A stretch of 64,000 nucleotides of DNA from an uncultured Chlamydiae bacterium (GTDB lineage: Bacteria; Chlamydiota; Chlamydiia; Chlamydiales; JAJFMA01): NCBI GenBank assembly GCA_963713615.1, contig CAVQMM010000001.1, forward strand, positions 1,472,001-1,536,000, read 5' to 3'. The translations under genes were made by a program, and so were the position numbers. Positions 20,022-54,601 of this stretch are shown one piece after another (the stretch's first letter is position 1; the number at the start of each line of letters is the position of its first letter). The notes under the pieces were generated by a model. It was not told the origin of the DNA, did not search any database, and saw nothing but the letters and a program-made list of their open reading frames with translations.

Positions 20022-20024
20022 CGT

Positions 20025-29772: not shown

Positions 29773-30110
29773 GAACCTCAACCGACTACGTCGCCAACGT
29801 TTGTTTTGCACGTCTCCATAATTGGGCCTTGTTCACCTTTACGGTCAGAATTTCGGTCGGACGAAAAAGGTCGGATGTCGTGGTTTGTGACGAGGGCATA
29901 GCGCCAGCTATGTCCGAGGAGCAAAACGCGACAGACGATCCTTTTGCAGTCGACCGAAAACTGACCGCAAAGGTGAATAAGGCCCATAATTGCAATGGAT
30001 TGTTCGCAGTCATGGAATGTTCATGGAATGACTGCGCCACATAGGAGGCCTTGTTACTTTCGGATATTGGCGACGCAGTCGGTTGGGGCTCCAAAGCGCT
30101 TCGCGCCGAG
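29773..30110. repeat. palindromic repeat family B, interrupted by the 160-bp MITE
   Basis: Shares CATGGAATGACTGCGCCACATAGGAGGCCTTGTTACTTTCGGATATTGGCGACGCAGTCGG with the 47250 and 56067 copies. Confidence 0.75.
29825..29984 (+). mobile_element. 160-bp palindromic MITE, copy A
   Basis: GGCCTTGTTCACCTTT...AAAGGTGAATAAGGCC; TSD CATAATTG on both sides. Confidence 0.92.
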
Positions 30111-30485
30111 TTTTGGGTTTGACATAGAAAACTTGACAGACTTTATGTCAATGTTTTATTTTACTTTTAGCGCATGGGAGAAGCCCATTTTGGCTTTGTA
30201 AAATTTCAATTTTTCTATTCTCTGTCTATTTTACCTCGCCCTAGGGGTGATTGGACGCATTCAGAATGTGTGCAACACGAAGTCGCAGAGGAATTGTCTC
30301 TTTCATGAGACAACTCCTACCGCGGGAATTAATCAGGAGCCTGAATAAAGCAACGGATCTGCAAAAAAACAAGATTTTTTAAAGAAAGTGATTAACCTGA
30401 GTTTTTGATTTTTTCGATTTTAGCTTGAGTGAAAGCTCTTGTGATGACAAAATCACAAAATTCATCTCGTTACATGGGGTAAATT

Positions 30486-31049
30486 ATGTTTAAACAAGGT
30501 ATTGGTATAGAACAGCTCAATTTCATAAAGAAAAGTTACGTGAAACTTTTCCTATTGTTATGCGTTTGTTTTATCTATCAGCCGCACACTCTCTATAGTG
30601 GTCAGACCCAAGCATTAATATATTATCTGAACATCTCAGACTTTGCAGATAGTTTTATTGAAATACCAACATCTAATGTGTCAATTGGAAGTTCTACAAT
30701 AAGTTCAACATATCTTGCCGGAAGAGCAGCGGTTTATGATAGTAATAATGTAAAGGTTGGAACATGTTCTGCTTCGTTTTTATGCATGCAAAATGCGGAT
30801 GGAATCTATACAGATATATCAAATTATTTTTCTGTTGATAGTGGATTAATAGTGTCATGGTTTACTCCTACAACATTGATAAATTTAGAATTAGATACTA
30901 TTATAAATTCCATGGTAACTGAATGCATGGTGCTGGCATCAACACAGGTTGGTGTTAATCCTTTTTATGGACAGACCTTTGACTTAATTGTTTCATCGGA
31001 TAGCCAAAAAATCTATTTTGCATTTACAAGAACAGGAACGATTTTCTGA
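30486..31049 (+). CDS. hypothetical exported protein
   Basis: 187-aa AT-rich ORF with a hydrophobic N-terminal segment. Confidence 0.6.
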   Translation: MFKQGIGIEQLNFIKKSYVKLFLLLCVCFIYQPHTLYSGQTQALIYYLNISDFADSFIEIPTSNVSIGSSTISSTYLAGRAAVYDSNNVKVGTCSASFLCMQNADGIYTDISNYFSVDSGLIVSWFTPTTLINLELDTIINSMVTECMVLASTQVGVNPFYGQTFDLIVSSDSQKIYFAFTRTGTIF

Positions 31050-31081
31050 ATTTGGACGTTAGTTGATTCAAATTCAAAGAT

Positions 31082-32163
31082 GCCTCTTGGGAAGGATTGG
31101 GGACGCTTTGGAATCACAATCGCAACTCGGGGCCTTATTCACCTTTGCGGTCAGTTTTCGGTCGACTGCAAAAGGATCGTCTGTCGCGTTTTGCTCCTCG
31201 GACATAGCTGGCGCTATGCCCTCGTCACAAACCACGACATCCGACCTTTTTCGTCCGACCGAAATTCTGACCGTAAAGGTGAACAAGGCCCAACTCGGCG
31301 CGAAGCGCTTTGGGCTATGGACGAAATGGACTAATTGAGGTAATTGCAGAAGTCCGATTCTCCGAAATCAATTTCCTGAAAATCGGATGCCGGTGAAGAG
31401 AGAGTCATTCCCTTCCCAGGCCCGCCCGAAGGGTCGATATTGCAACAGGCCATGGCATCGCCACATAGGCCTCAACCTAACAGGTCTTTTGAGCTTATAT
31501 CTCAATGACTTAGGACTTCACAATCGTATCTCGGCGCGCAGCGCTTTGGAGTGCGGTCGCTTGCGACCGCTTTTCGTTCCTTGGGACGGCAATGCTAAAC
31601 GGCATTGTATGGATTCGTCGAAGGCTGCATGTACTAACTATTTTACCCTTAGGGAATTATAGTGATGCCGTTGCACACGACCGTCGCAAGGAACCCAAAG
31701 CGGTCGCAAGCGACCGCACTCCAAAGCGCTGCGCGCCGAGATACGATTGTTAGGCTTAGGTTGAGGCCTATGTGGCATCGCCATGGTATATGCCAAAACG
31801 GTTTTAGCAGCCTGTAGGGCTGCCATAAAGCGCATGCATAAATGGTGTTTGTAAACTGGCGTCTTGTAGCAGTCCTTCAGACTGCGAAATCCCTTCCTGG
31901 CATATACCATGGCGATGCCATGGCCTGTTGCAATATCGACCCTTCGGGCCTGGGAAGGGAATGGATTCTCTCTCTTTGCCGGCATTCGAGTTTCGGAAAT
32001 TGACTTCGGGAAACCGGACTTCTTCAATTACCTCAATTAGTCCAGAGAATCAACCTTGTTACTTTCGGATATTGGCGGCGCAGTCGGCTGAGGCTCTATA
32101 GCGCAGCACATCTATTCGATGGTTTGTGGAAGCAAAAAGCGCCCCCAGTTCTTCACAAGAACC
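31082..32163. mobile_element. nested composite MITE with ISL3-type ends
   Basis: Ends GCCTCTTGGGAAGGATTGGGG / CCCCCAGTTCTTCACAAGAACC; several concentric inverted repeats. Confidence 0.8.
31131..31290 (-). mobile_element. 160-bp palindromic MITE, copy B
   Basis: TSD CAACTCGG on both sides. Confidence 0.92.
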
Positions 32164-32317
32164 AAATATTTTCGAACCCAAGAACTTTAGAAATCAATCG
32201 CAGGATCGCAGGTCCAGTCCTTTCGTTCGAGAAATTTACCTCTTTTGAATTTTTTCTTTCTGCTATTTACCCTGGATGCTATGGTGACTTCCTTAAATTG
32301 GTCATAAAGGAAGTTTT

Positions 32318-33127
32318 ATGAAACGCATCTTGCCCTCGCTTTTTTTACTGGCAGTCAGCCTTACAGGTACTATTCATGCTGAAGACTGCTGCTGTCAGCC
32401 CCAGGATTATTCCTTCTGTATTCCCCAGGATTATTCTTTCTATATTAAGGTTGGCACAGGCATCTCATTTGCTGAACCTGCTCATGTCGTCGCGCCTCCC
32501 CCAACATGGAATCCTGCGCTTCAAGGTTATAATTCGAAATTAGGAAATCAAGCAATTGCCGATTTAAGTATTGGTTGCGAATTCATGCATTTAGTGGATT
32601 TAGAAGTCAGTATTTCCAATCGTTCTGCTTTTAAATATAGAAAATTTCAAACTCCGGTTGCCGGCGGAGGATCTTACACAAGAGAATTTGATCTCGGTGT
32701 AACGCCCATTCTCTTTTCGGTAAATCTTCTTGGAAGAGATATCCCATGTTTAAATTGGGATATCGGTTGTGGCTATATCTATCCGATTCTAGGGGCTGGT
32801 ATAGGAGCTAGCGATCTTTTAATAACAAATTTTAGAACAACAGGATTGCCTCCTTCGGGAAGTTCTGCTCCATTTGACAGTTTTTCTGCCGAAAATCAAT
32901 ACACCCTTCGCAAAAATTTTACTTACACGGCTCTTCTTGGCTTGGAATACAATTACAATGGCTCTTGGGCTATTGCAACAGGTTACCGCTGGTTTGATGC
33001 CGGTAAATTTAAAGGACCTCGATTTCAAAGAGTTGCTACCGGTGGAGCGGTTGATATAGCTGGTGAGGAATGGGAAATGCGTTTTAGATCCAATGAGTGG
33101 TTTGTTGAATTTAAGATTTTCATTTAA
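32318..33127 (+). CDS. outer-membrane beta-barrel protein
   Basis: Signal peptide, FYIKVGTG, PILGAGIG, GYRWFDAG, terminal aromatic beta-strand. Confidence 0.7.
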   Translation: MKRILPSLFLLAVSLTGTIHAEDCCCQPQDYSFCIPQDYSFYIKVGTGISFAEPAHVVAPPPTWNPALQGYNSKLGNQAIADLSIGCEFMHLVDLEVSISNRSAFKYRKFQTPVAGGGSYTREFDLGVTPILFSVNLLGRDIPCLNWDIGCGYIYPILGAGIGASDLLITNFRTTGLPPSGSSAPFDSFSAENQYTLRKNFTYTALLGLEYNYNGSWAIATGYRWFDAGKFKGPRFQRVATGGAVDIAGEEWEMRFRSNEWFVEFKIFI

Positions 33128-33150
33128 GAAGACAATAGCCGCAGCAGCTC

Positions 33151-33215
33151 GGGGTCAGGCCTGGGCTGAAACTGAGCGTCCAAAGGCATGTCAAGTATCA
33201 CAGAGTCAGGCCCGA
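33151..33215. repeat. degenerate pair of REP-like junction motifs
   Basis: GGGGTCAGGCCTGGGCTG ... CAAGTATCACAGAGTCAGGCCCGA. Confidence 0.55.
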
Positions 33216-33354
33216 TTCTGACTTTTGATTGTTGGAAACTACAAGAAAAGATTAAAATTTTCTTTACCAACAAACTTGAGGAATGCCGTTCAATGAATCC
33301 ATCTGACGACCTACTCCCAGCGCGTGCTAGCACCTCTTTCAAGTCTATGAAAAG

Positions 33355-34235
33355 GTGAATAAATATGGTATTGAGTATAGAAGCGTAAGGTTGTTTGCAC
33401 TTGGCATGGTGGCGTTAAGTGTGGCTTCAGTTGGGAAGGCGAGTGCTACCCCATTTACTTTAACAGTCGACACGTATACAGATACCCCAAACGCTTACCC
33501 AGGCGGTCAAACAGACTCCTCTGGTGCTACTACTGGTGATCTGCGCTATTGCATTAATTACATCCTCAATGAACAAGCAGAAGGCGTCTCCCAAGACTAC
33601 GAAATTGTCTTTGCTACGGGAATTGAATCGATTCAGCTGGGCGCGAAGCTGTCGATGGTTAACCTTCTTGGCTCTGATACAATTGTGATCGGTAACCCTG
33701 ACCCTGCTGCGCCTGTCACCATCACAGGTAACTCCGGCATAGGCGGTCTATTTATCCGCCAAGGCGCCGTCACCTTGCAAAACCTCAACTTCCAGAGCTG
33801 CAACGCTACCGGCGGTAGCGGGGGTGATGGGGGTGGCGGTGGGATGGGTGGAGGGGGCGCCCTCTTTATCGACACAGCCAACGTAACCCTCCACAATGTC
33901 AACTTCAGCAGCTGCTCAGCCACAGCGGCACCGGTGCCACACCTGGCCTCACCACTCAAGGCGGCAATGGCGCCGCCTTAGGTGGCGCCGTATTCCTCGG
34001 CAGCTCGAATGCCCAACCTACTCTCACCCTCACCGGCAACTGCAGCACTTCTCTCAACTCCACCTCGAATAATTCCGGCGGCGGCTTCGCCGGCGGCAAC
34101 GACTTTTTTCTCTACTCAGGCACTACTCTCAACCTCGAACCCAACGTCGGTGAAACGATCTCCATCAGCCAATCTATCATCGATGACAGCGTGCAGGCCA
34201 TTCCTGTATCCCCCAATTGGCAAGCAGGTAAGTCC
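33355..34235 (+). pseudogene. N-terminal fragment of a Gly-rich Pmp/autotransporter-like surface protein
   Basis: Signal peptide, GDLRYCI, GGSGGDGGGGGMGGGGALF; frame lost after about 33925. Confidence 0.65.
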
Positions 34236-34357
34236 GAGTGTCTACTACGACCATAATCGGCAAAAAAACACGAGCTATGTCTACACAATCGTTTTCATTA
34301 AACGCTAGCGGGGCTCAGAGCTCCGTTTTATCAATTACTTTATAAAAGAGGCGATCT

Positions 34358-34508
34358 ACTTCCAAGTAACTCAAAGGGTTGGCGGCGCAATTTCCTATGT
34401 GGCGCAGTCATTCCATGACTGCGAAGACGGTTGAAACAGTTTCTGCTTGCTTCACATGGGATGTTTGTTTTGAAGCCATTCCCACTCAGCAATTGGGCTA
34501 GGGGTCAA
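34358..34508. repeat. repeat family B fragment followed by a REP-like motif
   Basis: GGCGCAATTTCCTATGTGGCGCAGTCATTCCATG; GGGCTAGGGGTCAA at 34495. Confidence 0.65.
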
Positions 34509-34519
34509 CTGCTTTTATT

Positions 34520-36577
34520 TTAATATTTTAAATGGAAGTTCAACAAGTTCCAATAGGAGATAAACCAGAAAAACCCCACACATGCAAGGGCCAGAAATGT
34601 ATTCCAAATTTTGCTCCAAAACCATTGTTGCTTATCCGTCCAGCATTTGATGCTGTTATAGATAACTGTCACAAAGCCTAAGCCTGCAATCAGAGCGACC
34701 ATTTGCAGCATTCGTAGCCACCGATCACTCCGCTCTGATAGCATGGATAAATCACTGAGTGTACCGGCAAAAACCAGTAGTCCTATAATGTAAACCACTA
34801 TGCTAAGACAAGTCAGATGCGCTATCGTCCGCAGTCTTTTTTCATTTGGTGCGATGACGAGCGACCTGCCGTAGTGCTTGCGAATCATGGCGGCGATGGG
34901 CCAAGCGAGCAGGGTTAACACGATCACAAACAAGCTGAAACCAAGGACAAAATAATTAAAGCTCTGTTTATTGAGCGTATTGTTCACTTGCATAAATACC
35001 GAAGATGGGTACTTGGTATCATAATTGGCATATGCGATATGGCGTCCACTGCCATCCTTTACAAATGCAATCTTAGCTTTCCCATTGACTTCGCGAAATA
35101 CCATGGGTGCGATTTCACGAAAATGAAGCGGTTGCTGATTTAATCCATTGAAACCCGTCATCGAAATGGTATTGTCCTTCAAATTGGCCGTTACTGTTGC
35201 ATTTAGTAACAACGTTGATAGCGCCAAGAAAGTTGTTTCAGCGCGACGGCTGAGTTCATAAGTCCCGAGGATGCTTTGCACATCTTGAGCCGTTATAGGT
35301 TGCTCAGGTTCCTGCGATGAAATTTCCGGAAAATACCGATCCATAAACTTATCGAATAACATGCTACTTAGATCTAGCTTGGACTGGCCTGCGCTGTTGT
35401 ATGAGATAAAGAGTCCAGTATTAGCATCCAAATTCAAGAAAAGATTACTGTGAAATAAAATCGTGTGTCCTTCATGTCCAATGATGCGATAACCGTTTTG
35501 TGACTGTTCATAAAATCCCAAACACATCGCATTCATTGCTTTTGGCCATCCCTCCTGCCTTGCATGCATTTGTATTGCTGTTTCTGGCTTTAGAACTTGC
35601 GCATTCCCGTAGCGTCCATTTTGTAATTGCATGATCATGAAATGCGTCATATCCAATGCAGATACTGAAAGAGCCCCTACAGGGGCTGCCTGAATCCATT
35701 CAAACGACTTTGGATCGTCAGAACCAAGTATGTATCCATTAGACATCGATGTTTTAAGAGTCTCCGGAAGAGGTTGACGAAATGTAGAATTGTGCATCTC
35801 AAGCGGTTTGAAAATGTGTTCTTCAACATAATCATTAAAATTCTGTCCCGAAACACGCTCTACAATATACGCCGCCATGGTTGCTGCATAATTAGAATAA
35901 GCAGGTGTTATTCCTGCTGGAAAAATTCTGGAAGGCATATGTGATTGTAAATATTGAGATAGGGAATGCAAATCCTCTGGGGACCTTACAAATAAATCTT
36001 TAATTGACTCTTCAAAACCTGCTCTATGCGTCATGATGTCACGCAAAGTAATGGGTTTATCAAAAGTTGGAGGAATCTTAAAATCAAGGTAATCGTTCAC
36101 ATCGCGATCCAAGTCTAATTTACCTTGTTCCACCTGTTGCATAACGGCTGTCCAAGTGAATAATTTTGAAATTGATGCAGGGCGGAAAAGGGTCTTTTCA
36201 GGAGAAATCGGAGTTTTTTTTGCTATATCTGCATACCCATAGCCTTTGGCAAAAATCAATGCGCCATCTCTTACCACTGAAATCACCGCACCAGCGACGT
36301 TTGCCTGTTCAATTTGCAGGGGCATGAACCCATCTAGGAATGCACCGACATCCGCAGTGGTTAATTCATGTCTATTCTTACTTCCTTCTTCAGAAATAGC
36401 TAAGCTGGGAAACGCCTCGGAAGCTTTGATATCAATCGACTCCGGTGCTTGGGCAAAAACCGCCGAGCAACTGAAAAGTAATGCACAACACAACCAACAG
36501 AATTTTTTACACGTCTTTTTTTTCACTGTAATGGTCCCTTGGCACTTGTCAATTTGTTTGCGAAAGAGGATTTTCAC
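34520..36577 (-). CDS. serine hydrolase (beta-lactamase class C-like) with C-terminal TM helices
   Basis: FRPASISKLFT (SxxK), YSN, GHEG; hydrophobic C-terminus. Confidence 0.88.
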   Translation of the reverse strand: MKILFRKQIDKCQGTITVKKKTCKKFCWLCCALLFSCSAVFAQAPESIDIKASEAFPSLAISEEGSKNRHELTTADVGAFLDGFMPLQIEQANVAGAVISVVRDGALIFAKGYGYADIAKKTPISPEKTLFRPASISKLFTWTAVMQQVEQGKLDLDRDVNDYLDFKIPPTFDKPITLRDIMTHRAGFEESIKDLFVRSPEDLHSLSQYLQSHMPSRIFPAGITPAYSNYAATMAAYIVERVSGQNFNDYVEEHIFKPLEMHNSTFRQPLPETLKTSMSNGYILGSDDPKSFEWIQAAPVGALSVSALDMTHFMIMQLQNGRYGNAQVLKPETAIQMHARQEGWPKAMNAMCLGFYEQSQNGYRIIGHEGHTILFHSNLFLNLDANTGLFISYNSAGQSKLDLSSMLFDKFMDRYFPEISSQEPEQPITAQDVQSILGTYELSRRAETTFLALSTLLLNATVTANLKDNTISMTGFNGLNQQPLHFREIAPMVFREVNGKAKIAFVKDGSGRHIAYANYDTKYPSSVFMQVNNTLNKQSFNYFVLGFSLFVIVLTLLAWPIAAMIRKHYGRSLVIAPNEKRLRTIAHLTCLSIVVYIIGLLVFAGTLSDLSMLSERSDRWLRMLQMVALIAGLGFVTVIYNSIKCWTDKQQWFWSKIWNTFLALACVGFFWFISYWNLLNFHLKY

Positions 36578-37530
36578 GGCTTGCTACCTATCACTTGTTG
36601 AAGGGTAGAACGACTGACGTTGCGCCCTGTAAGAACAATGACTGTAGGTCCTTTCGGACGCACATGGCCAAAAAGACAGCTAGCAAGAGCCACAGCAGCA
36701 GAAGGCTCTATGAGATACTGATGATGTTCTAAAAGCCAGCAAAGAGCCAATCGTAGCTCATCCTCTTTGATAAGATGAATTTCATCGACTCTAGTCTTTA
36801 AGATGTCAAAACATTTATCTCCCAAACCGCCTTCAAGGCCACCTGCAAGAGTATCGATAGAAGGCATATAAGTAATTGGCTTTCCCTGCTCCAAAGAAAG
36901 CTTAAGAGCGGCACAATCGGCAAGTTGGCAAATAATCATGTGCGCTTGGGGATTTTTGGATTTTACATACCACGAAAAACCAGCAGAAAGCCCTCCGCCG
37001 CCCATAGGAAGCACAAAATGCGTAGCTTCAGGCACCTGAGATAGCACTTCTACCGCCAGAGTGCCTCCGTTACCAGCCATGATCTTTTCATCGTTAAAAG
37101 CTGATATCATCGGGATCTGCAACTTGGCGGCCTCTTTTGCGGCCCATCCTAACGTATCATCATATCCGATATACTCTGATTTTTTGACTTTAGCCCCGAG
37201 TTGAAGCAGCTTATCATACTTCGCTTGATCAACACTTTTAGGCACAAACACTGTGCAGGGAATCTGTAATTCCTTAGCAGCATAAGCCATTCCAAGGCCG
37301 TGATTACCTGCAGAACAAGTGGCAACGCCCAATCTTCTTTCTTTTTCATTCAACGTAGAGAGGTAGAAAAAGGCTCCTCGTAGTTTAAAAGACCCAGTAG
37401 CTTGCAAACACTCGAGTTTTAAGTAGATCGGTTGACCAAAACATTTTGATAATTCTGGAGAAAACTCAACTGGCGTATTCCTGATTTTTCCTTTGAGGAA
37501 TTCGGTGGCTTGTTCAATTAACTGCTTCAT
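36574..37530 (-). CDS. threonine/serine dehydratase (PLP fold II)
   Basis: KLECLQATGSFKLRGA, SAGNHG, GGGGL, EPSAA, TGRN. Confidence 0.9.
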   Translation of the reverse strand: MKQLIEQATEFLKGKIRNTPVEFSPELSKCFGQPIYLKLECLQATGSFKLRGAFFYLSTLNEKERRLGVATCSAGNHGLGMAYAAKELQIPCTVFVPKSVDQAKYDKLLQLGAKVKKSEYIGYDDTLGWAAKEAAKLQIPMISAFNDEKIMAGNGGTLAVEVLSQVPEATHFVLPMGGGGLSAGFSWYVKSKNPQAHMIICQLADCAALKLSLEQGKPITYMPSIDTLAGGLEGGLGDKCFDILKTRVDEIHLIKEDELRLALCWLLEHHQYLIEPSAAVALASCLFGHVRPKGPTVIVLTGRNVSRSTLQQVIGSKP

Positions 37531-38764: not shown

Positions 38765-38801
38765 TTGTGTTGGGTTGTAGGTCGTCGTCTGATGCATTCT
38801 T

Positions 38802-39315
38802 ATGATTAAATATCTAAAACACTTATTGTTTGTTGCTTTATGTTGCGCTTCACTTTCAGCTGAAAAATGTTCTTATTCGGATCTCTTAAAAGGATGTGAA
38901 GCTGAACAGGCAAGGGCGTTGCAGGAGGTGAGCTCTTTTCTTAGGTTAACTGAAAGAACTCAATTTCAATCTCTTGAGGGTGGATTGACTCGAGCTAAAC
39001 TTTATTCCTTTGAGTTTGAAGGGAAAAAATACGTTCTTCGTTTCCTAGCTCCAAATCACTCAACGAAAATGCGACATAATGAGGTCCGCGCTTTAAAGAT
39101 TGGTAACCAGTTGGGAATTGCTCCACCTTGTATTTTTTCAGATCAAAACGCTGTTTTGACGGTTATGCCGTTTGTTGAAGGTCAAGCGTTATACCAGCCA
39201 GAGGATCATCAGCTATCACAACTTGGCAAAATGCTAAGAGCGCTGCATAATTATTCTGATTCATATCCAACGAGATATTCCTTAAAAGACAGGGTGGAAC
39301 TGCATTATCAAAAGG
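38802..39315 (+). pseudogene. choline/aminoglycoside kinase-like phosphotransferase truncated by a MITE
   Basis: LEGGLT, KYVLR, GIAP, LRALH; no HxD catalytic half after 39315. Confidence 0.75.
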
Positions 39316-39475
39316 GGCCTTGTTCACCTTTACGGTCAGAATTTCGGTCGGACGAAAAAGGTCGAATGTCGTGGTTTGTGACGAGGGCATAGCGCCAGCT
39401 ATGTCCGAGGAGCAAAACGCGACAGACGATCCTTTTGCAGTCGACCGAAAACTGACCGTAAAGGTGAACAAGGCC
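39316..39475 (+). mobile_element. 160-bp palindromic MITE, copy C (no TSD)
   Basis: Near-identical to copy A; flanks TCAAAAGG and CTTATCTG differ. Confidence 0.9.
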
Positions 39476-41910: not shown

Positions 41911-43560
41911 CTACCGTTGTTCCTTCGCTCTCTTATAACGCTGGATTAGGTTGTTGGTTGAACTGTCATGCTTGAGTTGGGACTTGTTCCCGGTTTCAAG
42001 TTCGGGAATGATGCGCACAGCAAGCGCTTTTCCCAGTTCGACACCCCACTGGTCGAATGAGTCAATTTCCCATATGGTACCTTGAGTGAAAACGCTGTGT
42101 TCATATAGTGCTACCAGTTTCCCCAAAGCTTGAGGAGTCAGTTGTTCCAGAAAGATTGTGCTTGATGGCCGGTTGCCTTCGAAAGTTCGGTGCGGTATTA
42201 GCTCTTCCGGTATGTTCCCTTCTCGTAACTCCTGCGGCGTTTTGCCAAAAGCCAGAGCCTCTGCCTGAGCAAAAACGTTGGCCAATAGCAAATCATGGTG
42301 ACGACCAAGGGGATTTAATGACTGAGCAAACGCAATAAAATCGCAGGGGATGAGCTTGGTCCCTTGATGAATCAGTTGATAGAAGGAATGCTGCCCATTG
42401 GTTCCTGGTTCACCCCAAAATATCGGTCCAGTTTGATAGGTGACTTTAGTTCCATCCAGCGTAACATGCTTACCGTTGCTTTCCATCGTCAACTGCTGGA
42501 GATAAGCGGGGAAACGCTTCAAGTACTGTTCATACGGTAGAACTGCTATGGTCTGTGTATCGAAGAAGTTGTTGTACCACAGAGCAAGCAAACCCATCAA
42601 CACTGGTAGATTGCTCTCGAAAGGGGCTGTGCGAAAATGTTCATCCATCTGGTGGAAGCCGTCGAGCATGGCATGAAAGTTGTCCGGGCCGATAGCGATC
42701 ATTGTTGAAAGGCCGATCGCTGCATCCATTGAATATCGACCACCTACCCAATCCCAAAACACAAACATATTTGCGGTGTCGATACCAAACTTAGCTACTT
42801 CCTCGGCATTAGTCGATACAGCAACGAAATGCTTAGCAACAGCGGCGGGGTGCTTTAACGTGTTGAGGGCCCATTCACGGGCTGTGTGCGCATTCGTCAT
42901 CGTCTCTAAGGTCGTAAAGGTCTTCGACGAGATGATGAATAGTGTCTCCTCAGCGTCAAGGTCATGGGTCGCCTCGGCGAAGTCAGTGCCATCAATATTA
43001 GAGACGAAGCGGAAGGTCAGGTTTCGCTGGCTATAGTGACGCAATGCCTCATATGCCATCACAGGACCTAGATCAGATCCGCCAATGCCGATATTGATGA
43101 TGTTGCGGATAGGCTTGCCCGTATGACCTTTCCATTCTCCGCTGCGAATTCGATTAGAAAAACTGGCCATCTTTTCAAGAACGGCGTGAACCTGAGGTAC
43201 AACGTCTTCCCCTTCTAGGACAATAGACTGCCCTTTGGGGGCTCGCAGCGCGACATGCAGGACAGCTCGCTTCTCTGTGACGTTAATTTTGTCACCCCTG
43301 AACATGGCTTCTATGCGAGCCCGCAACCCAGATTCCTCCGCCAATTGTAGAAGGAGCTTAAGTGTCTCGTCGGTGATGCGATGCTTAGAATAGTCAAAAT
43401 AGACGCCAATGGCTTCAGCTGTCATGCGCTCCCCGCGCTTGGGATCATTGGCGAAGAGTTCCCTAAGATGTGATTCTCGAATCTTGGGGTAATGAGCTTT
43501 GAGAGCATTCCATGCGGCGAGTTTTGTCAGTGGCACTTTGCTTGTTGATAACATGCTCAT
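41911..43560 (-). CDS. pgi: glucose-6-phosphate isomerase (in frame with upstream fba as assembled)
   Basis: [50 protein letters not shown]. Confidence 0.95.
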
Positions 43561-44580
43561 CTCCTTTTCTAGTGTGACATTATAATCGCCTCGACGCGCA
43601 GCCTGGTTACATCTAGCGCGATGATACAAGGCTTGCTGTGCTGCCAATACGTTTACTTCCTTGCCTTGCCAAATATCCAAGGCTGGTTGTTGAATTGCGC
43701 GAGCAAAAGAAAATGACAACGCCCAAGGGAGTTTTGACTTGAATCTGACATTCATGGCATTCAAGCGGGCTGAAGCGAGTTCACTGGATTGACCGCCTGA
43801 TAAAAACATAACTCCTGGAACGGCTGCAGGGACAGTTCTCAATAGACATCTCACTGTGGCATCGGCTACTTCGTCAACAGGTTCCTGTTTGGAGCAAGTC
43901 AATCCCGGAAGCACCATGTTAGGTTTCAAAAGCATACCTTCCAGTAGCACTCCTTGTGTATAAAGCTGATCGAAAACTATTCGCAGGACTTCCTCCGTTA
44001 CCTCATAGCACTGCTCTAAGTTATGCTCACCGTCCATGAGCACTTCTGGCTCGACAATCGGTACCAATCCAGCCTCCTGGCATAATGCTGCATAGCGAGC
44101 CAAAGCCTGCGCATTTGCTTCGATGCACCCTCTGCTTGGAATGTCGTTACCTATTGCAATGACCGCGCGCCACTTAGCAAAACGAGCACCCATCTGATAA
44201 TATTCCTTTAACCGATCACGCAATCCGTCAAGACCTTCTGCTATTTTTTCTCCAGGATGGCCTGCCATATCCTTTGCACCGGCATCAACTTTGATGCCGG
44301 GAATAATCCCTGCATCGGTAATGACTTTAACAAAAGGAATACCAGCTTTTGTGGACTGATGGATGGTTTCATCACAAAGGATAGCGCCACTGATAAACTC
44401 GCCCAAACCAGGTGTAGTCAGAATCAATTCCCGATAGGATCGCCGAGCTTCCTCAGTCTGGGGAATCCCTAACTTGGCAAATCGTTTGTTGCAAGTTGGA
44501 TTACTTTCATCCATAGCAAGCAAACCCTTATCGCAAGCTACCAGGGCCATCGCAGTATTTATAAGCTCTTGGATATTCAC
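43561..44580 (-). CDS. fba: fructose-bisphosphate aldolase class I, copy 2
   Basis: Same motifs as copy 1; no stop before the pgi ATG. Confidence 0.93.
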
Positions 44581-45282: not shown

Positions 45283-46005
45283 GTTCTTGGGAAGAATTAG
45301 TGGCGCTGGGTGGCGCAATTTCCCATGTGGCGCAGATCTCTTTTGTCCATGGGGGTGAGGCTCCATGGACTTCGTGGACAGTAATGAGGTAATTGCAGAA
45401 GTCCGATTCTCCGAAGTCAATTTCCTGAAAATCGGATGCCGGTGAAGAGAGAGTCATTCCCTTCCCAGGCCCGAAGGGTCGATATTGCAACAGGCCATGG
45501 CATCGCCACATAGGCCTCAACCTAACAGGTCTTTTGAGCTTATATCTCAATGACTTAGGACTTCACAATCGTATCTCGGCGCGCAGCGCTTTGGAGTGCG
45601 GTCGCTTGCGACCGCTTTTCGTTCCTTGGGACGGCAATGCTAAACGGCATTGTATGGATTCGTCGAAGGCTGCATGTACTAACTATTTTACCCTTAGGGA
45701 ATTATAGTAATGCCGTTGCACACGACCGTCGCAAGGAACCCAAAGCGGTCGCAAGCGACCGCACTCCAAAGCGCTGCGCGCCGAGATACGATTGTTAGGC
45801 TTAGGTTGAGGCCTATGTGGCATCGCCATGGTATATGCCAAAACGGTTTTAGCAGCCTGTAGGGCTGCCATAAAGCGCATGCATAAATGGTGTTTGTAAA
45901 CTGGCGTCTTGTAGCAGTCCTTCAGACTGTGAAATCCCTTCCTGGCATATACCATGGCGATGCCATGGCCTGTTGCAATATCGACCCTTCGGGCCTGGGA
46001 AGGGA
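45282..46005. mobile_element. second, truncated nested composite MITE
   Basis: ISL3-type end GGTTCTTGGGAAGAATT at 45282; 45385-46005 almost identical to 31336-31960. Confidence 0.85.
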
Positions 46006-46109
46006 GAAAAGCCTGTCTTTCCAGACTGGATAGTGCCATACCACTTAAGCTCTCTAGAATCGCCTTCTCACAAAAAAAGGTAACCTTTTTTTGTGAGAAT
46101 CGATTCTCA

Positions 46110-46446: not shown

Positions 46447-46454
46447 GGAGAGTC

Positions 46455-47216: not shown

Positions 47217-47228
47217 AGAGAAAGTTAG

Positions 47229-47460
47229 GGTTCTTGGGAATAATTGGGAACGCTTTGGAGCCCCAACCGACTGCGTCACCAATATCCGAAAGTAACAAGG
47301 TTTCCTATGTAGCGCAGTCATTCCATGCATTCCATGACTGCGAACAATCCATTGTAATTGTGGAGACGCGTAAAACAAACGTCCCATGTGATGCAAACGG
47401 AATCTGTTTCAACCGTTCTCGCAGTCATGGAATGACTGCGCCTCATAGAAAATTGCTCCA
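47229..47460. repeat. ISL3-type end plus repeat family B (site empty of the 160-bp MITE)
   Basis: GGTTCTTGGGAATAATTGGG; reverse complement matches 29798-30095 without the MITE. Confidence 0.75.
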
Positions 47461-47485
47461 GCCACCTGCTGAGTAGGGTATACAA

Positions 47486-47745: not shown

Positions 47746-47827
47746 CTTTCACTTGAAGATTTAAGCTGATTTGCGATTTATAAAACTAAATTTTAGACAG
47801 TATCAAATTTTTATGGTCCTTGCCTTT

Positions 47828-48454
47828 TTATGGCGACTGCGCCGCATTGAGGGTTAACATTAGTGTTATAGCGATTCCCCACATCATTGCACCTACTAGG
47901 CTATCAATGATTCTCCAAGAGCTTGGCTTGGACAATAAAGGCGCCAAAAGACGGCTCCCATAGGTAATGGCAAAGAACCAGAGAAAAGAGGCACTGATCG
48001 CCCCTAACGCAAAATAGATTTGCTCATGAGAAGGCTGTTGTGAAGCTATGCTTCCTAACAAAATAACCGTATCCAGGTAGACATGAGGATTGAGCAAGCT
48101 TAAGGCTAGAAGCAAACCAACTGTCCTTTTTATAGAGGGCAAATTCTGCTCTTTTGTCCCTTCCAAAAACCTAGGCTTAAAGGCGGATTTCAAAGAAACA
48201 GCGCCATAAAAAAATAGAAAAATGATCGCAAAGTACTTCGTGAGCTCAATTAATAACGGATAGGTAGAAATAAGCTGACCGAAGCCTAAGACCCCTAGAA
48301 GGATCAACAGCGCATCGATCGAAGAACAAAGAAGCGCTGTCATAAGAAGGTGACGGCGCATCAAGCCTTGCCGAATGACAAAGGCATTCTGTGCCCCAAT
48401 GGCCATGATTAAACTACCGCTTGTGCTAAAGCCTTTCAATAGTGCTAGGAACAT
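47828..48454 (-). CDS. argO: LysE/ArgO amino-acid exporter
   Basis: AIGAQNAFVIRQGL, LLNPHVYLDT. Confidence 0.9.
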   Translation of the reverse strand: MFLALLKGFSTSGSLIMAIGAQNAFVIRQGLMRRHLLMTALLCSSIDALLILLGVLGFGQLISTYPLLIELTKYFAIIFLFFYGAVSLKSAFKPRFLEGTKEQNLPSIKRTVGLLLALSLLNPHVYLDTVILLGSIASQQPSHEQIYFALGAISASFLWFFAITYGSRLLAPLLSKPSSWRIIDSLVGAMMWGIAITLMLTLNAAQSP

Positions 48455-48502
48455 GTTGAATTAACCCTTTAAGCTTGTTTGTCCATGTATATCTCCAAAT
48501 CT

Positions 48503-48747
48503 GGCTTATCCGATTTTGTAGGATTGGGCTACAAAGGCAGAAGTAAGCAAGGAGAGGATTTAGAATTTTTCCCAAGGCTTCACAAAAGCGACAGGTGCTC
48601 AATTTAACTTTTTCTGTTAAATTGAGATCCAGTAACTAAACATTCTCCTCTCTGTCCTAAATCTCTGTGTCCTCTGTGATCTCTGTGGTAAAAATCCTAA
48701 ATCCTATTTCCCTCCTCTCATCTAAGGCCTGCAAAACCGGATGAACC
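48503..48747. mobile_element. 245-bp MITE in the argO/argP intergenic region
   Basis: IRs GGCTTATCCGATTTTGTAGG / CCTGCAAAACCGGATGAACC; flanks CCAAATCT / CTAAATCT (7 of 8); internal CTCTGTG repeats. Confidence 0.65.
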
Positions 48748-48781
48748 CTAAATCTACTCCCATTTTAGTTCCTAATCGAGT

Positions 48782-48825
48782 ATAAGTAAAATTAATCAAT
48801 TTTATGACTCATAAGTCAATCTAAT
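48782..48825. promoter_or_regulatory. two LysR-type boxes upstream of argP
   Basis: ATAAGTAAAATTAAT and ATAAGTCAATCTAAT, each containing T-N11-A. Confidence 0.45.
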
Positions 48826-48834
48826 GGATGGAAA

Positions 48835-49731
48835 ATGCTCGATTATCGCGGAATAGAGGCTCTGCACGCTGTTCAAGAACTGCAAAGCTTTGAGGCGGCA
48901 GCCAAAAAATTGCACATCACCCAGTCAGCCGTTTCGCAAAGAATCAAGGGACTGGAAAACTTCTATGGGGAACCCCTGCTCGTTCGAGTGCTGCCCTATC
49001 GCCTTACCGAACTTGGAACACACCTCATTGGCCATTTTAAGCAGATTTGCCTACTAGAAGAAGGTTTGGAAAAGCAAATCAAAAAAACAGCGGTGATTCC
49101 ACGTATCTCCATCGCATTGAATCGAGATAGTTTGGAAACTTGGTTTTTAAGTTTGATCGAAGAAACTGATGTTTTCAGAAACATCATCCTAGAGGTTATC
49201 GCAGATGATCAAGAGCTCACCTTGGACTATCTCAAAAATGGATTGGTATCGGCCTGTCTATCCACTTCAGAAAAAGAAATCGTAGGAGGCAGAATTCACT
49301 TCTTAGGAAATATGGAATACGTGCTTGTGGCATCTCCAGCATTTGCGAAAACTTTTTTTTCAAAAGGAAGTCCTAAACAGTGCCTGCGACATGCTCCAGC
49401 AATTAAGTTCGATCAAAATGATAAATTGCATGAGAGATACCTTGAGAAATTTTTTAATCTGGATGGGAGGGAATTAGACTATCATGTCGTTCCCTCTGTA
49501 GCGGCGTTTAGAAAATTCGCTCTGTTAGGCTATGGCTATGGCCTTATTCCAAGGATTGATATTGTTGACGAACTCAAGAAAAAACAATTAGTACAGCTTT
49601 ATCGCGATAAGGTGTGGAATATTCCCTTATATTGGCATTATTGGGCTGTCCAATCTGCGTCCTACCAGAAATTCAACGCCAATGTCATTCATCATGCGAT
49701 GAACAAGTTGAGCAATCCAAAGGGCAGGTGA
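48835..49731 (+). CDS. argP: ArgP/LysG-type LysR regulator
   Basis: SFEAAAKKLHITQSAVSQRIK.LE, IALN.DSLETW, LYWH; divergent from argO. Confidence 0.9.
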   Translation: MLDYRGIEALHAVQELQSFEAAAKKLHITQSAVSQRIKGLENFYGEPLLVRVLPYRLTELGTHLIGHFKQICLLEEGLEKQIKKTAVIPRISIALNRDSLETWFLSLIEETDVFRNIILEVIADDQELTLDYLKNGLVSACLSTSEKEIVGGRIHFLGNMEYVLVASPAFAKTFFSKGSPKQCLRHAPAIKFDQNDKLHERYLEKFFNLDGRELDYHVVPSVAAFRKFALLGYGYGLIPRIDIVDELKKKQLVQLYRDKVWNIPLYWHYWAVQSASYQKFNANVIHHAMNKLSNPKGR

Positions 49732-49755
49732 GAAAAAGCTCAGACCCTTAGCACG

Positions 49756-50919
49756 CTACCTCAAAACCTTTTTGATCTTGCCACCCAGACCTATAAGCCT
49801 TTCCTTTGGTTCATTGGAGAAGACAAAGCGCACATATTTGGCAGCATGATCTCCCCAACCAACCATGGGCGTCGTGGCGATTTTAGCTTCTTTAAACAGT
49901 TTTTCAGTTAATGCCTCTGAATTCATACCAAGAGCCGATGCATCCAATAGCAAAGACCATCCTCCATGTGGAGGGATAAAAGTTAGGCCTGCGAGTTCTC
50001 CAAGCAAGGTATCTCGCCTTCCTTGCCATATTTCAATCGCTGCTATTAAACCATCATCTGTAGCATTCAGTCCTGCAGCGACCCCTGCCATACTAATGCC
50101 AGTTTGACATACTACGTTTGAGATACTCACTAAGGCGACATCGTTCATGATAGCTTTGGGGCCCACAACCCAGCCTACCCGCCAGCCGATCATCCTTAGT
50201 TCCTTAGAAGCCGCTCCAACCGTTATCGTGCGCTCTTTCATGTTTGGAAAAGATGCAGGGTGAATGACTGGTCGACTATCGTACAAAATGCGTTCCATAG
50301 CTGCATCGTAGAGTAGCCATGCATCTGTCTCTATACTGATGCGTGCGACAGCTTCCCATTCCTCGCGTGTCAAAATATGACCTGTAGGCATACCTGGACT
50401 AATCAAAACAATTCTTGTCTTGTCTGAGGCTGCTTTTTCCAAAGCGTGCAAGTCTAAAAGCCAACCCGTTGAGGAGGGTATCAGAGGTACAAATTTTGTG
50501 ACGCCTCCTGCAAGACGAATGCGGTTGATAATCCCAGCATAGGTAGGGTCTGTAACAATGACTTCATCCCCAGGCTCGAGCATCGCAAGCAGACAATTCA
50601 ATATGCCTGACATACCTCCCGCTGTGACAATGCACTCGGAACGCCAATCATACTCTACATCAGCCACGCGAGAAACGCGCTTGGTAGCTGCCTGTCTTAA
50701 TGCATCTTGGCCTAAAAAAGGCAAATAGCTGTTATTTTCATCAGCTCCGACACCCCTTCTCGTGACCTCTATAGCAATAGGCGGGGGAGCGATATCTGTA
50801 TCAAGGTTTTCAAGCCGCAATATCTCGGGATCATGCGCAGCGTCAGCAGCATTTCCCATGCGGTCTACTCCAATCCCGGGAACTTGCGCAAGTCTTGAGA
50901 CTCTTGTGTGTCGAGGCAT
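49756..50919 (-). CDS. PLP-dependent aminotransferase class I/II
   Basis: DPTY, PGMPTG, YDAA, SKELRMIGWRVGW. Confidence 0.88.
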   Translation of the reverse strand: MPRHTRVSRLAQVPGIGVDRMGNAADAAHDPEILRLENLDTDIAPPPIAIEVTRRGVGADENNSYLPFLGQDALRQAATKRVSRVADVEYDWRSECIVTAGGMSGILNCLLAMLEPGDEVIVTDPTYAGIINRIRLAGGVTKFVPLIPSSTGWLLDLHALEKAASDKTRIVLISPGMPTGHILTREEWEAVARISIETDAWLLYDAAMERILYDSRPVIHPASFPNMKERTITVGAASKELRMIGWRVGWVVGPKAIMNDVALVSISNVVCQTGISMAGVAAGLNATDDGLIAAIEIWQGRRDTLLGELAGLTFIPPHGGWSLLLDASALGMNSEALTEKLFKEAKIATTPMVGWGDHAAKYVRFVFSNEPKERLIGLGGKIKKVLR

Positions 50920-51043
50920 AGTAAATCCTGAAAATGATCTATGACAACTCACGATAGCTCGACTCACAAATTTAGTCAATATGTATAAGTTTGACAAAAT
51001 GTATAAATTCGGCTAAAATAAATGTCGTACAAGGAGCATTGTT

Positions 51044-51673
51044 ATGCCGAGCAGAGAATTCACAGCCTTATGGAAACACTATGAGCCCCTGATTAAAGCG
51101 GTGGTGGATCTTTTTCATCCTTTTGTAGAAGCCGCGGTCCACGATCTTGAGAAAGGCAAAGTGGTGGCTATCTACCATAATATTTCACAAAGAGAGGTGG
51201 GTGAACCTTCGCCACTTAAAGAATTGAAAGTAGACACTGAGGATTTTCCGGAATATTTCACCCCTTACTACAAACAAAATTGGGACGGGCGCTCATTAAA
51301 ATGCACTTCCGTAACGATGCGAAATAAAAAAGGGAAGCCAATTGGATTAATCTGTCTAAACATTGACGCAAGTTTTTTTCAGGATGGATACCAATTATTG
51401 AAAACATTTTTAAATGTTAAGGATGAAGCGGAAAATCCGATTGAAATTTTTGGCAGTCAATGTGAAGAACAGGCCGAAGGGGTCATCAAACAGTTTTTGG
51501 ATGAAAAGCATCTCTCTTTGAATCATTTGAACCGTGCCCAAAAAAGAGAGCTCGTCGTACAGCTTTATCGAAAAGGGATTTTTAATTTTAAAAATGCCAC
51601 ACCCTTCATTGCAAGAAAGCTAAACACGTCCCGGGCAAGTATTTATAATTATATCAAACAAATAGGAGAATAA
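51044..51673 (+). CDS. YheO-like PAS/HTH transcriptional regulator
   Basis: EAAVHDL, GR.LKC.S, IGLICLN.D, KGIF, SRASIYNY. Confidence 0.88.
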   Translation: MPSREFTALWKHYEPLIKAVVDLFHPFVEAAVHDLEKGKVVAIYHNISQREVGEPSPLKELKVDTEDFPEYFTPYYKQNWDGRSLKCTSVTMRNKKGKPIGLICLNIDASFFQDGYQLLKTFLNVKDEAENPIEIFGSQCEEQAEGVIKQFLDEKHLSLNHLNRAQKRELVVQLYRKGIFNFKNATPFIARKLNTSRASIYNYIKQIGE

Positions 51674-51679
51674 AATTTT

Positions 51680-52162
51680 ATGGTAAACAAGCTAAAGGCA
51701 TCTGCCCAACGCATTCAGGAAATTTTACAAGATCACGATCTCGGCATAAAAGTCATAGAATTTAAGGAAACAACCCGAACTTCTCAAGAGGCTGCAAATG
51801 CGATTGGGTGCGAGGTCGGGCAAATTGCAAAAACGTTGATCTTTAAAGGCAAGACAACAGGAAAGCCGCTGTGCATCATCGCAAGTGGAAAAAACAGGGT
51901 TGATGAAAAGAAACTCGTTCAAATCCTCGGAGAGGAAGTCGAAAAACCAGACGCTGAATTCGTTTTAAAGCATACGACCTTTGCCATTGGTGGCGTGCCC
52001 CCTATTGGATATGAGTTGGAAACCAAGCCTATAATCGATGAGGACCTCATGGTGTATCCAGAAATATGGGCTGCGGCGGGCACTCCTAATTCGGTATTTA
52101 GACTTTCACCGAATGATTTATTGCACATCACTCATGGTAGAGTTGTAGATGTCAAAAAGTGA
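51680..52162 (+). CDS. YbaK/EbsC aminoacyl-tRNA editing family protein
   Basis: TRT..EAA..IGCEVGQIAKTL, IGGVPP, WAAAGTP. Confidence 0.9.
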   Translation: MVNKLKASAQRIQEILQDHDLGIKVIEFKETTRTSQEAANAIGCEVGQIAKTLIFKGKTTGKPLCIIASGKNRVDEKKLVQILGEEVEKPDAEFVLKHTTFAIGGVPPIGYELETKPIIDEDLMVYPEIWAAAGTPNSVFRLSPNDLLHITHGRVVDVKK

Positions 52163-52350
52163 TGGCTAGGAAAGGACCTTGACCCGAAGGGTCGATATTG
52201 CCACAGGCCGTGACTGCGCCACATAGGAAATTGCATCAGCCAACCTTTTGAATTACTTGGAAGGCCCTAAAGCTTGAAAGATAGGCCCAAAAGGCTCAGC
52301 GAGGCTTGGCCGGTTCTACCGCCAAGCGACCGTTCCCTTTGTTAACTCTC

Positions 52351-53097
52351 TCAAAGCAGATACCTGTTTCTTAATTTGTCGATGCATCTCCGCATATGAG
52401 GATCCGATCGTTCATAAGGAATGTCGGTCGAAAAAAACCAACAAATTTGCTTAAATTCTTCCTTGTCAAACAAAAAAGAACCACTTGCGCACCCACTGAG
52501 AAGGTACCACAGAGACACGTCTGTATGACCTGCTGTTTGACCTACCGTTTTGGTCACTGTTAAGAAAAAAGGATCCTCATTAAGGAAATCTGCTTGAATA
52601 CCAAGTTCTTCTAGACATTCTCTTTTCACAGTCTCTTTAGGAGATTCATCTGGCTCAACATGTCCTCCAGAGGGTAACCAGAGACCAGCTTTTTTGTGAT
52701 CAACCAGGAGCAGCTTCTTTACTAAGGGATCTATCACAAGAAAATAGGGGCCTTGTTCGGCTTTCCGGGCAGAATTTCGGTCAGGCGAGAGGTCCCAGAT
52801 GCAGCAGTCGACGACGAGGGAATAGCGCTAGCTATTGCCGAGGAGGCGAATGCTGCAGATGGGCGCCTCGCAGCCGACCGAAAACTGCGCGAAAAGTCGA
52901 ACAAGGCCAAAATAGGCTACCAAATGTGGATCAGGAGTTGCAGGCTTGGCAATGCGAAAAATGCCGACACCTGAGTCGACCCAATCGTTTGCAAATCGGA
53001 GATGTTCCCTCTCCTTCTCATCCCAGGGCGTAATGGAACTGATCGCCTCTTTGATTTGCTTGATAGCATTATCTCTTTGTACCGACAACAAACGCAT
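52351..53097 (-). pseudogene. NUDIX hydrolase interrupted by a 160-bp MITE (start approximate)
   Basis: KPATPDPHLVAYF [insert] LVIDP...LWLPSGGHVEPDE.P.ETV.RE..EELG. Confidence 0.85.
52749..52908 (+). mobile_element. 160-bp palindromic MITE, divergent copy E
   Basis: GGCCTTGTTCG...CGAACAAGGCC; TSD AAAATAGG on both sides. Confidence 0.9.
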
Positions 53098-53857
53098 AAT
53101 CTCCAAGTTCACTCTCATGATCTCTAATGCACTTTTCGATCTCTCCGGAAGAGATATCCTTGCTGAGGCTATCACATCCATCCATGATCTCTTCTTGGTT
53201 CTCTGCTAGTGCAAAAGTAGATATTCCAGCGCGTACAATGGGGTCTAAGTAAAGATGAGGTTGATATTTTCCAATTTGCAAAAAACCATCTTGAAGATCA
53301 TTCGTGACGAAAAAATTCTCTGCTCTAATATCTTCAAAGCCAGCAGCCGCTAGAACGGCGCAGAGTCTGTCATAACTATGCATCTGGCTGGAAGCTGTAG
53401 ACATCGCTTTTGGAAAATATCGGTTCAGCCACGAAGTTTCCATCTGTTCAGGAAAGGAAGTAAAGATGACAAAACGCCCCTGTTTTAGAACCCTGAAGAC
53501 CTCTCGAAAAGACTCTTCTATATCTTTAATGTGGTGTGTTGCCAAAATGCATGTTGCACCGTTGAATTGATTATTATGAAAAGGCAAGCTTCTCGCATTG
53601 CCAAGAATCCATTCGATGTGACGACTTTTATTCCGTGCTTTTGCTAGCATTTCTTCAGAAATATCCACACCGCACATGCGATAGCCTTTTTCGGAAATTA
53701 CCTGCGTATAGTTTCCTGAACCACATCCAACATCAAGATAGTAACCATCGTTAGTTGGGGATAAGTGCTTAATGATTTGGTTGGCAATCTGCGGATCTGC
53801 CTTCCGTGTTTGATCGTATGTTTTTCCAATCCTGTTATATGCTGCTTCTGCCAACAT
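53069..53857 (-). CDS. class I SAM-dependent methyltransferase
   Basis: LDVGCGSGNY, GVDIS.EML, LPF, RVLK.GR. Confidence 0.9.
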   Translation of the reverse strand: MLAEAAYNRIGKTYDQTRKADPQIANQIIKHLSPTNDGYYLDVGCGSGNYTQVISEKGYRMCGVDISEEMLAKARNKSRHIEWILGNARSLPFHNNQFNGATCILATHHIKDIEESFREVFRVLKQGRFVIFTSFPEQMETSWLNRYFPKAMSTASSQMHSYDRLCAVLAAAGFEDIRAENFFVTNDLQDGFLQIGKYQPHLYLDPIVRAGISTFALAENQEEIMDGCDSLSKDISSGEIEKCIRDHESELGDYAFVVGTKR

Positions 53858-53875
53858 GGTTGCGATTCCTATGTG

Positions 53876-54328
53876 CTATTCGTGTTGCTTCCTATTCTGC
53901 CACTCTTCAATGAGAAGTATGTCACGTACGTCCTTCTCTCTACCCATTTTACGTTTGTAGTATAGGACATGTTCGAGTGATTCAAACGGAAGGCCGTCAA
54001 TCATTTCAGCATGTGCAAGGCGATCAGCTATTGTCGGTTCGTCAGGGGCTTTTTCTTCGGCATAGAAGGAACATTCGCCAAGTCCTTCAACAATACCATC
54101 AGGAAAAACGATCCTTTTCTCCCCAGCGTCGTCACTTACGCCATATTTTGAGGCAAGAACATTCCATAAATCGTCAGTTACAATAATGTCGATGTCGCCT
54201 ACTTCCCGCAAATTTCGAATTCCGAGGGGACCGCTACCCGATATGAAATACTGACCGATTGGAAGGCCCAGCTTTTTTACTGCTGCAAATTTTTGCCGAT
54301 TGTTTTGAACCATTTCATCCCTTTTCAA
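53876..54328 (-). CDS. hypothetical protein, possible nucleotidyltransferase-like fold
   Basis: GSGPL.IR..R...DIDI, GREKD..DI. Confidence 0.6.
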   Translation of the reverse strand: MKRDEMVQNNRQKFAAVKKLGLPIGQYFISGSGPLGIRNLREVGDIDIIVTDDLWNVLASKYGVSDDAGEKRIVFPDGIVEGLGECSFYAEEKAPDEPTIADRLAHAEMIDGLPFESLEHVLYYKRKMGREKDVRDILLIEEWQNRKQHE

Positions 54329-54441
54329 ACGCGTATAGGGAAAATCTAGAACTTTACTTTTGCTGACTTTTCACAACCAGGATACGAGCCAAAGGGATTT
54401 TTATCCATCGCTATTCACCATTTGTACAGGCCGTTTATTTG

Positions 54442-54601
54442 GGCCTTATTCACCTTTGCGGTCAGTTTTCGGTCGACTGCAAAAGGATCGTCTGTCGCGT
54501 TTTGCTCCTCGGACATAGCTGGCGCTATGCCCTCGTCACAAACCACGACATCCGACCTTTTTCGTCCGACCGAAATTCTGACCGTAAAGGTGAACAAGGC
54601 C
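54442..54601 (-). mobile_element. 160-bp palindromic MITE, copy D
   Basis: TSD TTTATTTG on both sides, spanning the GNAT stop codon. Confidence 0.92.

Follow-up and report, generated by a model that had tools for sequence, protein, structure and literature searches.

A 160-bp miniature inverted-repeat transposable element of a chlamydial genome, its probable DUF6399 partner and a G·A core found under different transposon ends

Five copies of a 160-bp palindromic repeat lie within a 64,000-nucleotide stretch of DNA (the window; positions 1,472,001 to 1,536,000 of contig CAVQMM010000001.1, here C1) from the 3.97-Mb, three-contig genome of an uncultured Chlamydiae bacterium that probably belongs, at order level, with the environmental Chlamydiales, and they raise the question of what moves an element that has no transposase gene of its own and what its interior is for. 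An earlier note, made from the letters of the window, had described a recently active element mobilised by an ISL3-type insertion sequence (IS) and able to donate peptide inserts to proteins in the manner of Rickettsia palindromic elements (RPEs). We find that the repeats are a real, recently expanded, non-autonomous MITE (miniature inverted-repeat transposable element) with 8-bp target-site duplications (TSDs). It is of interest for an IS family that can now be assigned, that of the DUF6399 proteins, and for a conserved, end-swapping G·A core. Coordinates without a prefix are those of the window.

Each of the five copies is 160 bp long with GGCC at both ends; their coordinates, lengths and ends were re-checked and are as the note gave them. 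The first copy of subtype A (29825..29984, plus strand, on which its G·A loops lie) is intergenic, upstream of a split MCRA-family gene, and is bounded by the TSD CATAATTG at 29817-29824 and 29985-29992. The second (31131..31290, minus strand; TSD CAACTCGG) is also intergenic, 3' of an open reading frame (ORF) at 30486-31049. The third (39316..39475, plus strand) has no TSD and is entered by an APH-family ORF (38802-39392), the stop codon of which lies within the MITE. Subtype B is represented by the copy at 52749..52908 (plus strand; TSD AAAATAGG), which is flanked by a methyltransferase ORF and a NUDIX ORF, and the fifth copy is again of subtype A (54442..54601, minus strand; TSD TTTATTTG), its right TSD containing the stop codon of a GNAT ORF (54603-55322) that remains intact. 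All four TSDs are perfect over 8 bp. The copies at 29825, 31131 and 54442 are identical, the last two on the minus strand; that at 39316 matches them at 157 of 160 positions and that at 52749 at 115 of 160, with the same length and an end-to-end fold, which agrees with the earlier picture of four near-identical copies and a divergent fifth.

A BLAST search of the whole genome returned 156 loci, including 126 ungapped 160-bp copies (113 of subtype A and 13 of subtype B), and most copies are intergenic. A perfect 8-bp TSD flanks 106 of the 126, and for 24 of these 106 an insertion-free paralogous site is present in the same genome. With its length of 160 bp, 16-bp terminal stem and lack of a transposase gene, the element has the make-up of a MITE, and its recent expansion is supported by copy number, TSDs and empty sites alike. 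One contig skips 168 nt at an occupied site; since an insertion-free paralogue of that site already exists in the genome, this contig is not independent evidence of an empty site. Two copies 5.2 kb apart (C1:3502697-3508041) share the same TSD and flanks and represent a segmental duplication. Beyond this genome, a related family, 70-74% identical, was found in one of 40 relatives searched. The matches from a search of sequencing runs were metagenome contigs only, in small shares, and in a plasmid collection the MITE had no counterpart, while three further end types gave chance fragments only.

The search for a partner relied on paired matching ends with an 8-bp duplication anywhere in the genome. 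It found one element, a 1,883-bp IS (C1:1035800-1037682; TSD CTCAAAGG) with a single ORF of 559 residues. Both ends of subtype A match the left and right ends of this IS over the first 16 nt each, and an end of subtype B matches a second, decayed DUF6399 IS, located outside the window, over 20 nt. It is very probable that the MITE is linked to an IS of this kind, and the 559-residue protein, a predicted DDE transposase, likely acts on it in trans. At L014:1489-4400 one unclassified transposase gene harbours both this autonomous IS and, about 250 bp away from it, a copy of the MITE.

The only Pfam match of the 559-residue protein is DUF6399 (PF19936); the Pfam Mutator family did not match it, nor did the NCBIfam transposase models, and a sequence search of solved structures was uninformative. 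In an alignment of 129 relatives Asp166, Glu167, Asp221 and Glu473 are invariant, and a D-x-F-H motif at 240-243 is nearly so. The predicted model (pLDDT 93) has an RNase H fold with a DDE triad (Asp166, Asp221 and Glu473), D240-x-x-H243 following the second aspartate and a long helical insert formed by the helices of 241-462. This corresponds to the anatomy of Mutator-like transposases in the available part of PMC3942029, namely a C/D(2)H signature after the second aspartate and a long helical insert. Foldseek placed Hermes and ISCth4 at the top for this model, while VIA-align ranked integrase cores first (Z of 13-14 over about 140 residues) and gave the longest superpositions with Hermes and ISCth4 (Z of 12.7 over 318 residues and 12.2 over 256). 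The nearest Atlas neighbours of DUF6399 are ISL3/Mutator clusters, some members of which carry PF01610 or PF00872.

DUF6399 comprises at least 1,563 proteins. Scanning genome contigs with the single protein gave nothing, and an alignment-based scan gave 80 loci from other genomes, of which 67 were examined after 13 partial or broken matches had been dropped. Across phyla, 53 of the 67 have paired ends that start with GG and lie 1,779-2,049 bp apart, and perfect TSDs occur at 19 (13 of 8 bp and six of 9 bp); the terminal consensus is GGCCTTG(A/T)TC and the element length 1.8-2.0 kb. On the strength of the predicted model and these termini, the family may now be assigned a likely role as an IS transposase with defined ends and target duplication. 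We found no mention of DUF6399 in the papers searched, and PF19936 and IPR045650 were absent among the matches listed.

ISL3 elements have GG termini and generate an 8-bp duplication. The partner IS has both features as well, and they are not specific to ISL3. The genome contains three ISL3 copies, one of them in the window (12031..13414, plus strand), and their ends, GGTTCTTGGG, share with the MITE only the opening GG. Neither PF01610 nor NF033550 matches the partner protein, and hhalign gives a probability of 0.1 against the ISL3 protein of this genome. IS1595 was likewise rejected as a partner, with no match to PF12762 anywhere in the genome. An autonomous element with matching ends, which the earlier note had sought, thus exists in the 1,883-bp IS, but it is a DUF6399 element and the attribution to ISL3 does not hold. 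The partner resembles ISL3 and the Mutator-like prokaryotic IS (IS256/ISCth4 and p-MULT, as covered in the available part of PMC3942029) in its DDE fold with a long helical insert, its DxxH motif, its GG termini and the 8-9-bp duplications of its family, and differs from them in its DUF6399 protein, its own terminal consensus and its family's length of 1.8-2.0 kb.

Subtypes A and B fold from end to end into the same rod, far beyond shuffled sequences (z of -14.1 and -12.3, respectively), with tandem GA/GA and GA/GCA loops on one strand. In the first copy the central core (29889..29921, plus strand) forms a GA-C-GA / GA-G-GA double tandem G·A loop below a 9-bp hairpin. Sheared G·A pairs are stable in DNA. 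Between the subtypes 16 of 64 pairs have changed on both sides and still pair, and five are broken; among 12 GGCC-type elements covariation is seen at 36 of 63 pairs. At least 122 metagenomic stretches contained a fixed G·A pattern, and most of the 80 that were analysed are the centres of 150-185-bp rods with varied ends. In 38 aligned core-bearing sequences 88.6% of the cells pair, both partners have changed in 14 of 21 pairs, and covariation, uncorrected for relatedness, is 0.536 compared with 0.152 for shuffled and at most 0.116 for slid alignments. Mismatches in the arms outside the core favour G·A over T·C (140 versus 11) and G·T over A·C (89 versus 32) in 26 representatives. The same is seen in 22 chlamydial representatives that were found by a model of the core and not picked by the pattern (G·A 96 versus T·C 7; G·T 58 versus A·C 23), and the G·A bias lies on one strand in 25 of the 26 and 21 of the 22. 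The central C-G pair is flipped to G-C in six rods, with the four GA steps unchanged. In our view the fold of one strand is probably under selection.

The core is not confined to one set of ends. The same 33-nt core is present in two other MITEs of this genome, 157-158 bp long, which have IS66-type ends and 8-bp TSDs; in the one at C1:191206-191362 it is identical to the core at 29889-29921 at 30 of 33 nucleotides. A partial IS66-family element in the window (27002..28227, plus strand) has the ends, GTACGTCC, that match these MITEs. A covariance model of the core matched in 37 of 149 genomes of the phylum and in none of the 26 from one family, whose genomes mostly measure 1.0-1.2 Mb, and the rods it found carry over a dozen end types. 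In one genome (G236) one of these end types also begins an IS1182 transposase gene, the far end of which lies beyond the contig. The same core is thus found under the ends of three transposase families: DUF6399, IS66 and IS1182. Viral contigs gave no core matches. Among genomes reached through their DUF6399 loci, for which limited candidates were scored, the model matched in three of 36, all three chlamydial, and in none of a further five; with so few matches, the DUF6399 IS family is wider than the core. At C1:2417796-2417974 a truncated core rod of the IS66 type directly adjoins a DUF6399 IS at its right end, forming the kind of chimera that could start an exchange of ends.

The orientation of the copies follows replication. 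The turning points of the GC skew are at 0.81 and 2.87 Mb. Of 122 chromosomal copies, 89 have their G·A strand on the C-rich strand, which is the template for the leading strand (p = 4e-7). Target polarity as the cause predicts about 53%, and gene direction was set aside because convergent, divergent and tandem neighbourhoods all show the bias. The bias is the same in identical copies (57/77) as in changed ones (32/45), and other repeat clusters do not show it; as it neither rises with copy age nor extends to other repeats, it likely arises at insertion. Purging by SbcCD was rejected as well: there is no rise with age, and sbcD has no match in this 99%-complete genome, although it was found in 13 of 14 control genomes. 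Its absence may let long palindromic repeats accumulate. Replication-linked orientation is known in several IS families, ISL3 included (PMC3971601, available part).

We give about an even chance to the explanation that the MITE is moved in trans by the DUF6399 protein and that its G·A rod is a single-strand DNA structure which aids transposition whichever ends it carries. The transposase would bind the 16-22-bp terminal repeats and make an 8-bp staggered cut at A-rich targets, and the element may be copied out as a circle, by analogy with IS256 and Mutator-like elements. While DNA at the fork is briefly single-stranded, the G·A strand would fold up and draw the two ends of this very short element to each other, such a DNA-level fold assisting synapsis or copy-out, and new ends could be gained by arm-to-arm copying beside the end of another IS. 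We favour DNA over RNA as the level of action because selection that survives swaps of transposase should act on the spread of the element, and because orientation tracks the fork and not transcripts. Taken together, the results suggest that the G·A core is a shared device for mobility, likely one that has not been described.

Several observations weigh against this explanation. Relatedness inflates the covariation and mismatch counts, and since a fixed G·A pattern served to pick the first set, the constancy of its invariant columns is built in. Copying from arm to arm, which is visible among young A copies, can yield double changes without selection, and the preferences for G·T and G·A suit RNA as well as DNA. 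No partner transposase was found for the CAGACCAC, CCCGCATT and CTCACCTT ends among the 12 ORFs scanned, no core match was found in the non-chlamydial DUF6399-carrying genomes searched (limited candidates scored), and four thinly covered contig sets showed no circle junction. The orientation bias was not replicated in the other end types (20/36 oriented, p = 0.62, by a local-skew method that is 79% accurate), and subtype B alone gives 8/13; the bias might therefore belong to the transposase and not to the core. For Mutator-like elements, unequal ends are known to set the orientation of insertions (PMC3942029, available part).

In a rival account the core is an inherited passenger of an ordinary DUF6399-driven MITE: template switching from arm to arm maintains the rod and produces the compensatory changes, the end swaps are accidental and the bias stems from unequal transposase ends. 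Young A copies do carry changes that complete the match of their arms, TSDs are kept by internal deletions of 56-139 bp, and the failure to replicate the bias with other ends is as this account expects. Yet arm copying should erase mismatches, whereas unpaired bases are better kept between A and B than paired ones (28/32 versus 87/128); the mismatches that remain are G·A-biased on one strand in nearly every representative, the central pair flips while the GA steps beside it stay, and shortened derivatives are rare next to the 106 full-length copies with TSDs. We consider the passenger account unlikely.

Another possibility is that the rod works as RNA, being co-transcribed and folding into a G·U/G·A helix that stabilizes or terminates neighbouring transcripts or directs their processing by RNase III, as has been proposed for NEMIS; the available part of PMC2229807 gives a precedent for RNA processing at these repeats. 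The G·A strand gives the more stable RNA fold (-103.9 versus -84.5), the arms hold more G·T than A·C, most copies are intergenic and one RNA-library contig spans the element, which is not proof of transcription. Within replichore classes, however, orientation follows the fork and not the neighbouring genes, Rfam gave no match at the gathering score or at an E value of 10, and a function in host RNA leaves the association of the core with many unrelated IS ends unexplained. A role in RNA therefore seems rather improbable to us.

A further reading, built on the earlier note, is that an RPE-like element, selected for a 168-nt footprint that keeps the reading frame, donates 56-residue inserts to working proteins. 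RPEs are often found in frame within working proteins, with 19 genes given in the available part of PMC2229807, and their in-frame insertion is also covered in that of PMC10969869. Three of the six frames are indeed open in subtype A and in subtype B, as the note stated for the former, but with 1.2 and 1.6 expected each is near chance (P = 0.06 and 0.16). Across 26 representatives of related rods the open frames number 35, with 35.7 expected, and across 22 chlamydial representatives 13, with 9.5 expected. The sum of 160 and 8 is 168 and does preserve frame, but this is not conserved: the footprint is a multiple of three in six of 22 classes (with boundaries set automatically and in part imprecise), and of ten GGCC-type metagenomic copies flanked by 8-bp TSDs seven have a length of 158 bp. 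Shortened derivatives of 67 and 139 bp preserve the frame, and those of 56, 57, 161 and 162 bp shift it.

For each TSD site, the test drew on the frames open to its left and right and on paralogues. Among paralogue-verified coding insertions five are open and four closed, and when 14 unverified candidates are added ten of 23 are open, so that the expected bias towards open frames is absent. At most 23 of the 106 sites are coding, compared with about 77% coding DNA by a crude gene caller; coding DNA is avoided. Three of the five open cases are in transposase genes (two of the ISAs1 type and one other), and the other two are in a small repeat-family protein and a GT92 glycosyltransferase, the latter with two further frameshifts that could be assembly errors. 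The closed cases are a transposase gene twice and an RHS gene twice, the RHS-repeat insertions lying at C1:3692509 and C1:3694341 in a gene that has a paralogue without interruption, 1,721 codons long. No RPE model matched the six open-frame peptides, and no NCBIfam family did so at an E value of 1. Donation of peptides is thus largely refuted and we regard it as very improbable, in spite of the open frames and the two verified insertions outside transposase genes; insertions that happen to be in frame within proteins are probably by-products of chance. The element is a useful negative control for the RPE idea, as a footprint that keeps frame does not by itself make a peptide donor.

What survives of the RPE comparison is a weak structural resemblance. 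TIGR01045 (RPE-1) matched six of 401 genomes in an alphaproteobacterial sample, one over the cut-off, a tally that includes one genome (G330) whose loci were left out. Ten RPE1-family rods from 11 loci share with the chlamydial element a rod of about 145-160 bp, loops rich in G·A on one of the strands (66 G·A to 7 T·C) and a YGAGGA-like motif in the right arm by the terminal hairpin. They differ in their ends and left core, and G·T is not enriched (16 versus 31 for A·C). The three best hits of the core model fall in register on RPE1-like rods but are not significant (E of 0.49-0.99), so the likeness is suggestive only. A broader proposal would see here a widespread chassis class of miniature elements, so far undescribed, in which one G·A-stabilized single-strand rod lets about 160 bp of DNA be moved at the fork by almost any DDE transposase whose ends have been captured, with RPE-1 as a distant member and its protein insertions as a side effect. 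We offer this tentatively, as the less probable side of the question.

Other repeats and genes of the window stand apart from these matters. The MCRA (oleate hydratase) family gene near the first copy is split over two ORFs (28465-29648, minus strand) and is either a pseudogene or the product of an assembly indel. Other abundant inverted-repeat families, at 31327-32044, 45385-46039, 30022-30104, 34369-34471, 47251-47474 and 56069-56186, comprise an element of about 720 bp and short GTCATTCCATG palindromes, and the MITE is often inserted in or next to them. An 889-residue ORF (41911-44580, minus strand) fuses a class I fructose-bisphosphate aldolase with a phosphoglucose isomerase, and part of it is 84-87% alike to 7964-8992. 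An ORF at 17870-19540, without an NCBIfam match, is flanked by clusters of short direct repeats based on GGGGTCAGGCCTGACAC (17571-17678 and 19731-20185).

The element has clear likenesses to the bacterial type II MITEs (Correia/NEMIS, ERIC, RUP, YPAL, QMITE2 and Chunjie), being short, non-coding, mostly intergenic and of high copy number, with IS-shared terminal repeats, TSDs and a long stem-loop. As those elements are described in the available parts of PMC10969869 and PMC2229807, it differs in its partner, an unclassified DUF6399 IS, in a strand-specific tandem-G·A core kept across the ends of at least three transposase families and in an orientation that follows the replichore. A literature search found nothing relevant on MITEs in environmental chlamydiae, on tandem-GA MITEs or on shared-core MITEs; the cMITE catalogue (PMC11602168) or ISfinder might already list this MITE or its IS family.

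For the DUF6399 proteins, a family of unknown function, these results provide a likely job, ends and a target duplication. For MITEs, the interior of which is usually seen as decayed filler, they describe a case in which the interior is conserved and the ends are exchangeable, and this pattern of core and ends bears on why many bacterial MITEs are imperfect rods of about 150 bp.

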